Below, one piece after another: positions 48,222 to 61,365 of a stretch of DNA of 64,000 bases; within the stretch, counting starts at the first letter, position 1; each line of letters begins with the position of its first letter. The DNA is from an uncultured bacterium. Its GTDB lineage: Bacteria > Bacteroidota > Ignavibacteria > Kapaibacteriales > UBA4661. Both the position numbers and the translations under genes were made by a program. The notes under the pieces are model-generated. The model was not told the origin of the DNA and did no database searches. It was given only the letters and a program-made list of their open reading frames with translations. The stretch spans positions 2,339 through 66,338 of the forward strand of contig CALCNX010000034.1 of NCBI GenBank assembly GCA_937899715.1, given 5' to 3'.

Positions 48222-50213
48222 ATGAAAACTCTCGTGTACCTGATTCCCGCATTGCCGCTTGTCGGCTTTGTTCTCTTAGGTTTTTTCGGCGCAAAGCTGA
48301 GTTATTTCGAGAAAGGTAAGACCATCGCCGGGACGCTTGCGAGCGCTATGGTTGGACTGCCGTTTCTTTTTGCTTGTATTTTGTTTGCGCAGATGACTTC
48401 CGGCACATTTCTGCCGCAGACTTTTACGCTCTTTACGTGGATTCATGCAGGCGATTTCTCCATTGACCTTGCGTACAAGGTTGACCAGCTCTCACTGCTT
48501 TTTACGCTGATTGTAACGGGTATCGGTTTTCTGATTCACGTGTATTCAATTGGCTACATGGCGCATGACGAAGGTTTCACGCGCTTTTTTGCTTATTTGA
48601 ATCTGTTCATTTTTATGATGCTCAATCTCGTCCTTGCCGACAACTACGTTGTGACGTTTTTGGGCTGGGAAGGCGTGGGGTTGTCATCGTTCTTACTGAT
48701 TGGCTTTTGGTACGACCGCGAATTTACGGGTACAAACATCGTCTGGACGGGCGATGCAGCAAAGAAGGCGTTTATCGTCAATCGCATCGGTGATTTCGGG
48801 ATGCTTATTGCAATGTTCATTCTCTACGTTCTTTTCGGTTCATTGCGTTTCGATGATGTAAATGCCTCAGCGATTGCTTCATCCATCAAAGGCGTGTTCC
48901 CAAGCGGTTCGGCGTACAGCACAGGCTTGATTACCGCCGTTGCGCTGTTGCTTTTCTTGGGTTGCACGGGCAAATCTGCACAAGCGCCACTTTTCGTCTG
49001 GTTGCCGGACGCTATGGCGGGTCCAACGCCTGTTTCGGCGCTTATCCACGCCGCGACGATGGTTACGTCGGGCATTTTCCTCATTGCCCGCACAGCACCA
49101 ATTTTCGCGCTCTCGCATGATGCCATGAATGTTGTGGCTATTGTCGGTGTCGTAACGGCGTTGCTTGCTGCCACGATGGGCTTAGTGCAAAATGATATTA
49201 AAAAAGTGCTCGCGTACTCGACCGTAAGCCAGCTTGGGTTTATGTTTGCCGCGCTTGGCGTTGGAGCATATACGGCGGCTGTTTTCCACGTGATGACACA
49301 CGCTTTCTTCAAAGCCTGCTTGTTCCTTGGCTCCGGCTCAGTCATTCATGGAATGCACGAAGAGCAAGACATTCAGAAAATGGGCGGTTTGTCGAAATAT
49401 ATGCCTATCACGCACCGCACATTTTTGATTGCTTCGATTGCCATTGCCGGAATTTTCCCGTTTGCGGGCTTTTTCTCCAAAGATGAAATTTTGTGGAATG
49501 TCTTTGAGCACGGCTCGCCCGTAATGTGGTTAGCGCTGGCTGTGGCAGCGTTCTGCACGGCATTCTATATGTTCCGCCTTGTCCATCTCACCTTTAGCGG
49601 CGAAGAGCGCTTTGATGCCCACCATGTTCATCCGCACGAGTCGCCTGCTACGATGACCGTGCCGCTTATTATTTTAGCGGTGTTGTCGGTCGTGGGTGGT
49701 TTTCTGGGTGTGCCTCATGCGCTTGGAGCGCCCATGCACGTCGGGAATTGGATTGAGCATTGGTTAGCACCTGTGCTGGAGCCTGCGCACAAAGTCTTAG
49801 CGCGAGGCGAAGGGGGTGAAATTTATGCTATTGAATATGTTCTCATGGCGGTATCGCTCGGCATTGCTATTGTTGGTATTTTGCTGGCTGGTGCTTGGTA
49901 TCGCAAGGCATCGGGAGCACCGGATTCATTTGCAAACCGCATGAAAGGCTTGTACAATCTCGTCTGGAACAAATACTTTATTGACGAAGTCTATTACGGC
50001 TTGATTGTCAATCCACTCCACAAAGTCGCCGATGTAGTCTTCTGGAAAGGTGCGGAAACCTACGGCATAGATAATGTGGTCAACCGTTCTGGTTCAGTCG
50101 TAACGGCGCTTTCGGAGCTGTTTCGCCGTATGCAATCGGGCATTGTGCAGAATTACGCCTTGCTGCTGGTTGTGGGAATTGTGGCTGTTATGGCATGGCT
50201 CTTGCTAGCGTAA
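48222..50213 (+). CDS. nuoL: NADH-quinone oxidoreductase subunit L
   Basis: LIPALPLVGFVLLGFFG N-terminus. The antiporter-like core WEGVGLSSFLLIGFW is present. C-terminal HESPATMTVPLIILAVLSVVGG and a NuoL-sized extension, 663 aa. Confidence 0.88.
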   Translation: MKTLVYLIPALPLVGFVLLGFFGAKLSYFEKGKTIAGTLASAMVGLPFLFACILFAQMTSGTFLPQTFTLFTWIHAGDFSIDLAYKVDQLSLLFTLIVTGIGFLIHVYSIGYMAHDEGFTRFFAYLNLFIFMMLNLVLADNYVVTFLGWEGVGLSSFLLIGFWYDREFTGTNIVWTGDAAKKAFIVNRIGDFGMLIAMFILYVLFGSLRFDDVNASAIASSIKGVFPSGSAYSTGLITAVALLLFLGCTGKSAQAPLFVWLPDAMAGPTPVSALIHAATMVTSGIFLIARTAPIFALSHDAMNVVAIVGVVTALLAATMGLVQNDIKKVLAYSTVSQLGFMFAALGVGAYTAAVFHVMTHAFFKACLFLGSGSVIHGMHEEQDIQKMGGLSKYMPITHRTFLIASIAIAGIFPFAGFFSKDEILWNVFEHGSPVMWLALAVAAFCTAFYMFRLVHLTFSGEERFDAHHVHPHESPATMTVPLIILAVLSVVGGFLGVPHALGAPMHVGNWIEHWLAPVLEPAHKVLARGEGGEIYAIEYVLMAVSLGIAIVGILLAGAWYRKASGAPDSFANRMKGLYNLVWNKYFIDEVYYGLIVNPLHKVADVVFWKGAETYGIDNVVNRSGSVVTALSELFRRMQSGIVQNYALLLVVGIVAVMAWLLLA

Positions 50214-60508: not shown

Positions 60509-60988
60509 CTACGGATTAAGTGTCTCTTCCAGCGAAATCGGGCGCTGGAGGCTTTCTTCCAGCGAAATAAACGTCTCAGTGCGTTCTATGCCTTCGATGG
60601 CTTGTATCTTGTCATTCAGCACTTCGCGTAGATGTTGCGTATCACGGCAGACAATTTTAGCTAAAATGTTGTAATTGCCTGTGGTATAGTGCAACTCAAT
60701 AATTTCGGGAATAGCCTCGAGTTCCTTGACGACGCTTTTGTAGAGCGAGCCTTTTTCCAGATAGATGCCCAAAAATGCACAAATATCAAAGCCGAGTTTC
60801 GTCGGCGAAATCAGTAGCTGTGCGCCTTTGACTACTCCTGCCGATTCCAGTTTTTTCATCCGCACGTGCACTGTGCCCGATGACGTATGTACCTCTTGCG
60901 CAATGTCCGTGAAAGGAAGTCTCGCATTGCGCAAAAGCAGTGTGAGGATTTTGATGTCGAGTTCATCAATATCAATAATTTGACCCAT
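60509..60988 (-). CDS. Lrp/AsnC-family transcriptional regulator
   Basis: LDIKILTLLLRNARLPFTDIAQEVHTSSGTVHVRMKKLESAGVV HTH region plus a C-terminal RAM-like domain. Confidence 0.88.
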   Translation of the reverse strand: MGQIIDIDELDIKILTLLLRNARLPFTDIAQEVHTSSGTVHVRMKKLESAGVVKGAQLLISPTKLGFDICAFLGIYLEKGSLYKSVVKELEAIPEIIELHYTTGNYNILAKIVCRDTQHLREVLNDKIQAIEGIERTETFISLEESLQRPISLEETLNP

Positions 60989-61073
60989 AGTTCAGAGGTG
61001 TAAATTATGAAATTTTCAATAAATTCGTTATATTTTGCAAATTATTAAATAATTACGATATTTTGTAAATAAA

Positions 61074-61105
61074 TTTGCATAAAAATAGCTGATGTGTTAT
61101 CTTTG
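61074..61105 (+). promoter_or_regulatory. Bacteroidetes-type promoter (-33 TTTG / -7 TAnnTTTG) for the downstream RNA gene
   Basis: TTTG at 61074-61077, a 20-nt spacer, then TATCTTTG at 61098-61105. Confidence 0.45.
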
Positions 61106-61154
61106 TATCAGTAACAATAACACAACTGTTACTGCTCTTTCAAAACAAACATTA

Positions 61155-61282
61155 CTGTAAGATGACGAAACAGGCAGCCGTACCGTCCAGTCTCGACGGT
61201 GGAGCAACGCGATAAAGATGTGAGCAAGTTCGCTTCTCATTTCCTAAGTCCTCCGTGAAGGTTCGATTCCTTCTCTTACAGC
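61155..61282 (+). ncRNA. tRNA-like structured RNA with a ~56-nt variable region (class unknown)
   Basis: Hand-folded cloverleaf. Acceptor pairs 61155-61162 with 61274-61281. D-like arm pairs 61165-61167 with 61179-61181, with GG in the loop. Anticodon-like stem pairs 61183-61187 with 61195-61199 around the 7-nt loop CAGTCTC. T arm GAAGG-TTCGATT-CCTTC spans 61257-61273. The long insert is closed by GGAG/CTCC and contains a UUCG hairpin. Confidence 0.5.
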
Positions 61283-61298
61283 TCTCGTAACGCAAAAA

Positions 61299-61336
61299 CT
61301 GCATATCCCTCAATCAGGTGTAGGCAGTTTTTTTTT
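61299..61336. terminator. bidirectional intrinsic terminator (RNA gene on +, murB on -)
   Basis: Stem CTGC...GCAG with inner pairs (61299-61327). It is flanked by A5 (61294-61298) and T9 (61328-61336), so a U-run follows the hairpin on either strand. Confidence 0.6.
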
Positions 61337-61365
61337 GCCCTTTTGTGAATTCGCTACTGAGTGCT

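Follow-up and report, generated by a model that had tools for sequence, protein, structure and literature searches.

A conserved class-II-shaped tRNA-like RNA family with a divergent AsnC-type regulator gene in Bacteroidota and Kapabacteria

Previously described bacterial RNAs of related shape include YrlA, a stable non-coding RNA with a transfer RNA (tRNA)-like T/D/acceptor module, sometimes in tandem, which ends in a Ro-binding stem and whose genes lie beside rsr. Non-canonical allo-tRNAs and irregular tRNA-like polycistrons with long arms have also been reported (Mukai et al. 2017, as reviewed in PMC7609411), and in Escherichia coli the regulator AsnC binds asparagine and activates the divergent gene asnA (as cited in PMC2504300). 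Here we analyze a stretch of 64,000 nucleotides (nt) from an uncultured bacterium of the Kapaibacteriales (assembly GCA_937899715.1, contig CALCNX010000034.1, positions 2,339 to 66,338 of the forward strand), called the window throughout, in which the gene for a tRNA-like RNA (61155-61282, + strand) lies divergent from an AsnC-type regulator gene. Comparative analysis shows that this RNA belongs to a conserved family of class-II-shaped tRNA-like RNAs with a 7/5 acceptor/T stack, an intact D/T elbow and an AsnC-type divergent partner. A literature search found no description of the RNA or of its loop motif, and the family is apparently undescribed so far. An earlier annotation made from the letters of the window alone (hereafter the sequence-only reading) had proposed an independently transcribed tRNA-like RNA that could be a new regulatory RNA, an unusual tRNA or a mimic. 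Every element that it listed was found on direct inspection within 61074-61336, and the fold, the arm and the transcription signals proved to be conserved across two phyla.

Comparative support for the cloverleaf and its extra arm

The acceptor, anticodon-like and T helices all appear in the minimum free energy fold of 61155-61282, whose energy is unremarkable for the composition of the sequence (z = -1.19, not significant), so the case for the fold rests on comparison among family members. Given a MAFFT alignment of 36 distinct copies that was not fitted to any model, RNAalifold returned the same cloverleaf de novo, with helices of 7 base pairs (bp) for the acceptor, 3 bp for the D arm, 5(+1) bp for the anticodon-like arm, 4 bp for the arm-closing helix and 5 bp for the T arm. 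Since MAFFT mis-registered the small helix of the extra arm, the copies were re-aligned on sequence anchors, and in this pairing-blind alignment each stem position is paired in 35-36 of the 36 copies, the exceptions being the outermost pair in the small helix of the arm and an optional pair between positions -1 and 73. Compensatory changes occur at acceptor pairs 4, 5 and 7 and in the D, anticodon-like, arm-closing and small arm helices. In a model-fitted alignment of 51 distinct copies, 98.2% of the cells are paired, compared with 49-60% when the partners are slid; double-sided changes are seen in 12 of 26 pairs, and none of 500 shuffles matches the observed values. Covariation among relatives, which the sequence-only reading had named as a check on its stems, supports every helix but the T stem, which is invariant. 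Under the covariance model, the RNA strand reaches 120 bits, compared with 5.6 bits for the opposite strand, and this difference, along with frequent G-U pairs, identifies the + strand as the RNA.

Standard detectors do not recognize the complete molecule. ARAGORN at default thresholds makes no tRNA or transfer-messenger RNA (tmRNA) call at 61155-61282, and the RNA is unmatched in Rfam 15, both at the gathering score and at E<=10 in the window and at E<=1 on seven other loci. These searches had also been suggested in advance, and neither an Rfam family nor the tRNA finder claims the full-length RNA. Once the extra arm is trimmed, ARAGORN at default settings calls a tRNA-Asp(gtc) with a 7-bp acceptor starting from U1. 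The weak Rfam matches nearby (rpsL small RNA, CRISPR-DR50 and others) are AT-rich or terminator-like and were dismissed as chance. The only ARAGORN call in the window, a 92-nt 'tRNA-Gly(acc)' at 49007-49098 (- strand), was rejected as a false positive: it has a G-U-rich acceptor, no UUCGA T loop and no Rfam support, and it falls within a NuoL/Mrp-antiporter-like open reading frame (ORF) at 48222-50213.

On this comparative evidence, the reading of 61155-61282 as a tRNA cloverleaf with a 54-nt structured arm in the variable-loop position holds. The acceptor pairs UGUAAGA (positions 1-7, 61156-61162) with UCUUACA (positions 66-72, 61274-61280), its pairs 4, 5 and 7 covarying between A-U, G-U and G-C, and is followed by G73 (61281) and an invariant C74 (61282). 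The sequence-only reading had counted eight acceptor pairs opening with C-G. Seven of them, starting at U61156, are conserved, so that the conserved first pair is U1-A72; the eighth, between C at position -1 (61155) and G73, lies outside the conserved acceptor, is specific to the window lineage as the only one in which it is pairable, and is left unpaired by RNAalifold. Across the 36 copies the -1:73 combination is C-G in 25, U-G in 5 and mismatched in 6, and among the 51 distinct copies position -1 is occupied by C in 39, by U in 6, by A in 5 and by G in 1.

U8 and G9 lead into the D arm (61163-61181), which has the 3-bp stem ACG/CGU and the 11-nt loop AAACAGGCAGC with G18 G19. Stem pair 11-24 covaries (C-G / U-A), and the loop measures 11-13 nt across the family; its length differences are confined to the stretch between AAA and GG (C A / U A / UUUA / UC / UU), which corresponds to the alpha region where real tRNAs differ. 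Numbering past G19 (C A G C) is ambiguous. The anticodon-like arm (61182-61200) comprises A26, the stem CCGUC/GACGG, the 7-nt loop CAGUCUC (61188-61194) and U44, with covariation at the middle pair (G-C / C-G) and at pair 4 (U-A / U-G / C-G). Downstream of the extra arm follow G, U48 and the T arm GAAGG-UUCGAUU-CCUUC (61255-61273), whose loop reads UUCGANU in the family and whose stem is invariant save for A50 to G (giving G-U) in 5 copies. No CCA is encoded, and the bases past C74 vary among copies. The sequence-only reading had recognized U8, the 3-bp D stem with its GG-containing 11-nt loop, the 5-6-bp anticodon-type stem, the T arm and the missing CCA, and the family bears out each of them. 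The canonical cloverleaf features (7-bp acceptor, 5-bp T stem, UUCRA, GG in the D loop, U8) are thus all present.

The extra arm (61201-61254, followed by GU) is closed by the helix GGAG/CUCC (61201-61204 with 61251-61254), which covaries, as does a small helix of 2 bp (61209-61210 with 61248-61249; 2-3 bp in the family); the pair types in these helices are G-C / A-U and C-G / G-C / A-U. Next comes an internal loop, GAUAAA // CUAA (61211-61216 // 61244-61247), which is conserved in the family as NANAAA // CUAA, and then a UUCG-capped distal hairpin (61217-61243); in the family this hairpin is free in sequence and length, ranging from 9 to ~55 nt and frequently capped by GCAA. Arm length spans 36-100 nt in the family and total RNA length 111-158 nt. 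The oversized arm with its UUCG hairpin had therefore been seen correctly, its length of ~56 nt and its branching not, as it spans 54 nt and forms an unbranched single rod. Longer distal arms are found in Rhodocytophaga rosea (L055:2217-2359, - strand, 143 nt) and in a metagenome-assembled genome (MAG) of the Saprospiraceae (L021:287-444, - strand, 158 nt). The motif GGGUUGACCACUAA occurs internally in both, suggesting that a subclass of the family has a second conserved module.

Invariant across the family are U8, G9, G18, G19, the T stem, the UUCGA of the T loop and U3-A70. Among 49 complete distinct copies, U1-A72 is present in 47, G2-C71 in 48, and G73 and C74 in all; the three departures at pairs 1-2 all come from second copies of arrays. 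It should be noted that the scan patterns fixed the D loop and either the anticodon-like loop or the T arm, and that most copies were found in this way. Hence, the invariance of these pattern-fixed parts rests mainly on four loci retrieved through the regulator gene and on additional copies found by the covariance model, and both agree; the T arm is conserved in the four regulator-fetched loci as well, which are free of RNA-pattern bias.

In the anticodon-like loop, U35, C36 and C38 are invariant among 50 distinct copies, position 34 is G in 40 and U in 10, so that the loop reads GUC or UUC there, A stands at position 33 in 32 and U in 18, position 37 is always U or C, and position 32 varies; the resulting loops are CAGUCUC, CUGUCUC, UUGUCUC, CUGUCCC, CUUUCUC and CUUUCCC. 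U33 together with a purine at 37 is near-universal in decoding tRNAs. The window loop has U37 and, as the sequence-only reading had remarked, A33. Given the pyrimidine at 37, and A33 in the window lineage, the RNA is unlikely to decode codons. G73, G34, U35, C36 and C38 are the five strong, evolutionarily conserved aspartate determinants (reviewed in PMC9976931), and all five are present in the window. Our preferred reading is that conservation of the loop tracks synthetase identity and not the decoding needs represented by U33 and a purine at 37.

Genomic context, arrays and transcription signals

In total, the family comprises 59 copies at 33 loci, in tandem arrays of 1-4. Its hosts are Kapabacteria/Ignavibacteria MAGs, the Saprospiraceae MAG and cultured Cytophagales (Roseivirga, Reichenbachiella and Rhodocytophaga). 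A pattern scan of species-representative genomes retrieved nine loci in Ignavibacteria/Kapaibacterium MAGs and the diverged form in the Saprospiraceae MAG; three further matches (L016, L019 and L027) have no surrounding cloverleaf and were discarded as chance. Metagenomes, scanned with the anticodon-like arm left free, added 22 loci, including many marine ones. With a covariance model of 36 distinct copies, 58 copies (51 distinct) were then found at 32 loci, which locus L056 raises to 59 and 33, and only one copy in the 64-kilobase window. No family member was found in a scan of viral contigs.

The AsnC-type (Lrp/AsnC family) regulator gene occupies 60509-60988 (- strand), divergent from the RNA gene, and its product carries the Pfam domains AsnC_trans_reg and HTH_AsnC. 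In PDB the protein matches E. coli AsnC best (2cg4, E = 2.7e-34, with residues 7-151 aligned), the runner-up reaching 2e-22. On the NCBIfam AsnC equivalog model, the window regulator scores 167 bits and the regulators of the family 152-173 bits, all under the cutoff of 227, with other Lrp types at <=80 for the window protein. AsnC is clearly the closest subfamily. Clustering of neighbouring ORFs singled out this Lrp/AsnC-family gene of 153-163 amino acids as the sole conserved partner of the RNA: an orthologue lies divergently upstream in 28 of 36 RNA loci, and three of the other eight are cut by contig ends. The distance between the regulator and the mature 5' end of the RNA is 139-219 nt at the 12 loci with a well-defined gene start. 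When regulator genes were looked up without regard to the RNA, all four look-ups (Roseivirga pacifica, Reichenbachiella ulvae, Rhodocytophaga rosea and an uncultured relative) gave the RNA in the upstream gap.

The genes 3' of the RNA differ by taxon and are often convergent, among them murB in the window, fadD and a ferritin-like gene. In one genome where synteny with murB is broken, the RNA stays with the regulator (L015 compared with L023), and four more distant MurB loci have neither regulator nor RNA. Consequently, murB as a partner, together with the idea of a peptidoglycan or Fem-type role, was set aside, as its synteny is limited to the closest relatives. The flanking 'lrp-family gene' and murB of the sequence-only reading are both where it placed them; the former can be specified as AsnC-like and as the one conserved partner, and the latter is incidental. 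Also rejected was the AMP-binding gene downstream in Cytophagales as an enzyme acylating the RNA, since it encodes an ordinary FadD-type fatty-acid-coenzyme A ligase that is absent in other clades. Pfam searches of 40 further ORFs of the window turned up neither synthetase nor gatCAB nor asn genes, and the neighbours of the RNA loci include no transposase or integrase. At seven loci (L038, L039, L041, L051-L053 and L055) sufB-sufC-sufD, genes of Fe-S cluster assembly, come directly after the AsnC-like gene and share its strand. This arrangement occurs in Roseivirga-like marine Cytophagales and in Rhodocytophaga, and not in Kapabacteria, Reichenbachiella or L056.

Array size differs among close relatives of the window. 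Its MurB is 90% identical to a protein from a Candidatus Kapabacteria MAG, and on contigs that encode close MurB relatives the same gap between regulator and murB contains two or three RNA copies in tandem. An ENA metagenome contig with an identical MurB (L001, 1111-1468) carries two tandem copies, compared with one in the window, and the window copy corresponds to copy 1 fused to the flank of the last copy. The single copy may therefore reflect a recombinational deletion between repeats or an assembly collapse. On the same contig, a public gene call at L001:1182-1442 (+ strand; window ~60980-61240, - strand) places an ORF of 86 amino acids without a Pfam match over the RNA array, which is almost certainly a spurious protein prediction from an unannotated RNA. 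The ~40-45-nt spacers between copies (L001:1268-1311, - strand; also L006 and L020) contain a hairpin of 6-7 bp without a U tract, for example CAUCUUC-AAGCGC-GAAGAUG, and these hairpins are probably processing or stability signals and not terminators. The anticodon-like loop (CAGUCUC with UUGUCUC; CUUUCCC with CUUUCUC) and the distal arm can vary between the copies of a single array, as at L021, L029 and L030, which indicates that such arrays are not simple recent duplications. No mixture of G34 and U34 types was seen in any array inspected. One Roseivirga pacifica assembly (L051:1990-2219, - strand) has an insertion of ~98 nt after the first copy, bordered by a 17-nt duplication of the 3' end of the RNA, AATCCTTCTCCTACAGC, and a second strain (L052) is without it; the insertion resembles integration at a tRNA 3' end.

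The RNA gene of the window has a Bacteroidetes-type promoter at 61074-61105 (+ strand), with the -33 element TTTG at 61074-61077, a 20-nt spacer and the -7 element TATCTTTG at 61098-61105. A TAnnTTTG box lies 30-110 nt 5' of the first RNA copy at all 13 loci inspected, and a sigma-70 scan of the window found no + strand site after 61034. The 5' leader forms a hairpin (61109-61134; 61109-61116 with 61127-61134) of 8 bp with a 10-nt loop and 100% complementarity, folding at -7.4 kcal/mol (z = -3.47), and relatives have comparable hairpins in leaders and in the spacers between copies. At the 3' end lies an intrinsic terminator, a hairpin followed by U9 at 61299-61336 (+ strand; -15 kcal/mol, z = -3.44). 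A simple consensus terminator scan reported only another, short 5-bp stem across the T9 run (61323-61339), and the terminator hairpin at 61299-61327 thus rests on folding and not on that scan. Strong terminators follow the last RNA copy in Reichenbachiella, Rhodocytophaga and Roseivirga. Promoter, leader hairpin and terminator had all been predicted by the sequence-only reading at these coordinates. Because the upstream box is found at 13 of 13 loci and strong terminators in relatives, the RNA constitutes its own transcription unit, and these signals show transcription from its own promoter as a precursor with one to four copies. The leader (~61106-61154) must be removed to release the tRNA-like 5' end.

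Between the divergent genes lies an AT-rich imperfect inverted repeat, TTTTGCAAATT ... AATTTGCATAA (61033-61082), whose 11-nt arms are 91% complementary and separated by 28 nt. It overlaps the -33 box of the RNA promoter and is a candidate operator for the AsnC-like protein. A TCTGTAAATAT-like box occurs at a similar distance in other taxa.

Proposed role and rival explanations

We tentatively propose that the RNA is a tRNA mimic that does not decode, is controlled by the AsnC-type protein and engages AspRS/GluRS and GatCAB, a reading in which we place less than even confidence. In this scenario, the AsnC-like protein would set transcription of the RNA according to an amino acid, for which the example of E. 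coli asnC-asnA suggests asparagine. Leader, spacers and trailer would be trimmed off by RNase P and a 3' processing enzyme, and CCA would then be added; we infer tRNA-type end processing, CCA addition and transcriptional control by the regulator. The mature RNA would show the aspartate set G73, G34, U35, C36 and C38 to the aminoacylation machinery for Asp/Asn (Glu/Gln), with one Cytophagales clade presenting U34-U35-C36 instead. U1-A72, the mark of bacterial GatCAB substrates, would be a second signal: bacterial GatCAB picks tRNA-Asn and tRNA-Gln through this pair as a positive determinant (PMC1635274, PMC2811023). Pyrimidine 37, A33 in the window lineage and the large arm would bar ribosomal decoding, so that the RNA would be, for AspRS/GluRS and GatCAB, a regulated substrate or decoy without a decoding function. 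In some bacteria, tRNA-dependent amidation is the only source of asparagine (PMC2330236).

Several observations weigh against this proposal. The body of the RNA is class-II-like, and its long arm, 3-bp D stem and G73 are the signature of SerRS and not of AspRS, being the basis of serine identity (PMC9976931, PMC7609411). In bacterial tRNA-Asp, G1-C72 is strictly conserved together with G2-C71 and positions the 3' end in AspRS (PMC9976931); the RNA has G2-C71 and, in place of the former, U1-A72. Glutamate identity in E. coli depends on A37, G1-C72, U2-A71 and on residue 47 being missing (PMC9976931), and the UUC clade fits none of these determinants. GatCAB also senses the size of the D loop, an extra base (U20A) being an antideterminant (PMC1635274), and the D loop of the RNA is large, at 11-13 nt; moreover, the arm would lie near the modelled position of the GatB tail (PMC2811023), so that large D loop and arm may block GatCAB. 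The GAUAAA // CUAA loop and the invariant T stem point to a further partner outside the model, and at five loci the RNA is found without an adjacent regulator.

A more far-reaching version, which we consider unlikely, makes the RNA a dedicated non-ribosomal aminoacyl carrier that replaces asnA beside asnC. AspRS (GluRS in the UUC clade) would load it through the GUC or UUC loop and G73, GatCAB would amidate the product through U1-A72, and the cell would make or sense asparagine (or glutamine) on a non-decoding RNA. If true, this would be an AsnC-regulated, tRNA-dependent pathway for amide amino acids uncoupled from translation.

The main rival, which we rate only a little below the proposed mimic, makes the RNA a riboregulator or protein-binding RNA whose tRNA shape serves only maturation and stability (RNase P and RNase Z acting on a multi-copy precursor), the working part being either the internal loop and tetraloop-capped hairpin of the arm, bound by a protein or another RNA, or the C/U-rich loop, which could pair with purine-rich messenger RNA. 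The arm has a conserved core of its own, with NANAAA // CUAA between covarying helices; the GCAA cap common on the distal hairpin is a loop type for tertiary or intermolecular contacts, and the expanded distal arm motif recurs in two distant taxa. Hairpin-spaced tandem copies require tRNA-type processing, and the invariant T stem suggests a sequence-specific partner. However, a riboregulator leaves unexplained why U1-A72, G2-C71, U3-A70, G73 and C74 are held invariant while acceptor pairs 4-7 covary freely, and why loop conservation matches a synthetase identity set. It also finds no candidate partner among conserved protein neighbours besides the regulator, and no target complementarity was found, although no systematic search for it was made. 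The intact elbow (G18 G19, the UUCGA T loop, U8, A14 and A21-like positions) would suit a mimic of uncharged tRNA acting on translation or the stringent response, through the ribosomal A/E site, RelA, EF-Tu or tRNA-modifying or -processing enzymes, under a feast/famine control of AsnC type. The Lrp/AsnC family is tied to amino-acid supply, and multi-copy arrays are consistent with a dosage-dependent titrating RNA. We nevertheless regard such a mimic as distinctly improbable, since a generic one needs neither a fixed N-U-C-Y-C loop nor three fixed acceptor pairs, and a large arm at the variable position would probably impede binding to the ribosome.

Translation itself offers another explanation, in which the RNA is a decoding tRNA: either an Asp/Glu isoacceptor whose arm is exotic, or a class II tRNA that is charged by SerRS and inserts serine at GAY/GAR codons, in the manner demonstrated for allo-tRNAs. 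Many members do have U33 (CUGUCUC, UUGUCUC, CUUUCUC), and the trimmed RNA is accepted by ARAGORN. The loop evidence given above stands opposed, with a pyrimidine at 37 in 50 of 50 distinct copies and A33 in 32 of them, the window included; in addition, the arm is two to four times the length of any class II arm and contains a conserved internal loop. For the serine version, the long arm, the 3-bp D stem, G73 and G2-C71 are in place, whereas the RNA has U1-A72 where most bacterial tRNA-Ser conserve G1-C72 along with G2-C71 (PMC9976931), and serine at Asp/Glu codons would be toxic unless control were very tight. Decoding in either form thus appears to us more doubtful still, with little probability attached to it. 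As for a non-functional relic, be it an array of tRNA pseudogenes, a mobile-element repeat derived from a tRNA or the cis-regulatory leader of a neighbour, the tandem repetition, the Roseivirga insertion with its duplicated RNA 3' end, as at tRNA integration sites, and the spurious ORF sometimes called over the RNA might be cited. We give this explanation hardly any credence: sequences are near-identical with strictly compensatory changes across two phyla, synteny is fixed with one regulator and no transposase or integrase lies nearby, viral contigs contain no match, and the RNA has its own promoter and terminator, with downstream genes that vary from taxon to taxon and often face it convergently.

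Comparison with known systems

If real, as the covariation says, this conserved family is added to the short list of bacterial tRNA mimics. Present annotation misses it, tRNA finders and Rfam being blind to the RNA and false ORFs sometimes being called over it. The combination of an acidic-type loop, an amidotransferase first pair, lost decoding features and an AsnC neighbour leads to a concrete hypothesis on the use of tRNA beyond translation, and three cultured host species make the hypotheses directly testable. The family is also of structural interest for the extent to which the variable arm of a tRNA can be elaborated.

The RNA is closest in shape to the class II tRNAs (Ser, Leu, Tyr), with which it shares a long arm between positions 44 and 48, a 3-bp D stem, a large D loop, the 7/5 acceptor/T stack and a canonical elbow, as well as G73 with tRNA-Ser. 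It departs from them in an arm of 54 nt (36-100 nt in the family) compared with ~13-21 nt, with a second helix and a conserved internal loop, in U1-A72 where they have G1-C72, in pyrimidine 37 and, in many members, A33, and in that the full RNA escapes the Rfam tRNA model and ARAGORN. In its acceptor end and loop, it resembles tRNA-Asp (G73 with G34-U35-C36-C38) or tRNA-Glu (U34-U35-C36), and its U1-A72 is the pair of tRNA-Asn and tRNA-Gln used by bacterial GatCAB (PMC1635274, PMC2811023, PMC9976931). It mixes an acidic-type anticodon with an amide-type first pair, a combination foreign to normal tRNAs, and it further differs from the tRNAs for Asp, Asn, Glu and Gln in its class II body, in a large D loop that could act as an antideterminant and in the lack of a purine at 37.

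The sequence-only reading had likened an 8+5 stack to tRNA-Sec or allo-tRNAs. This likeness is not borne out, because the conserved acceptor has only 7 bp: the conserved stack is 7/5 and the 3-bp D stem has a loop of 11-13 nt, where tRNA-Sec has an 8/5 stack and a 6-bp D stem with a 4-nt loop, and no loop of the RNA has UCA. The tmRNAs are likewise distinct, as neither ARAGORN nor Rfam reports a match and a length of 111-158 nt leaves no room for a tag frame. YrlA resembles the RNA in its tRNA-like module and occasional tandem copies, whereas the RNA ends at the acceptor stem, has no rsr/rtcB or Ro/Rsr neighbour and has no Rfam match.

Allo-tRNAs and the irregular polycistrons, as far as the review describes them (PMC7609411), resemble the family in some five-stem junctions, in possible polycistronic organization, in an anticodon mismatched to the likely charging identity and in the frequency of GUC. 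They differ in their 8/4 or 9/3 geometry (a 12-bp acceptor domain), compared with 7/5 and an invariant 5-bp T stem here; many of them decode in E. coli, the account gives no AsnC linkage, and they come from Clostridia, Proteobacteria and Acidobacteria, while the present family is so far found only in Bacteroidota and Ignavibacteria/Kapabacteria. The genomic arrangement, finally, recalls E. coli asnC-asnA, with an AsnC-type regulator that aligns over its full length to E. coli AsnC and is divergent from its presumed target. Here, however, the partner is an RNA and not asparagine synthetase A, and in Cytophagales the regulator also heads a sufBCD cluster.

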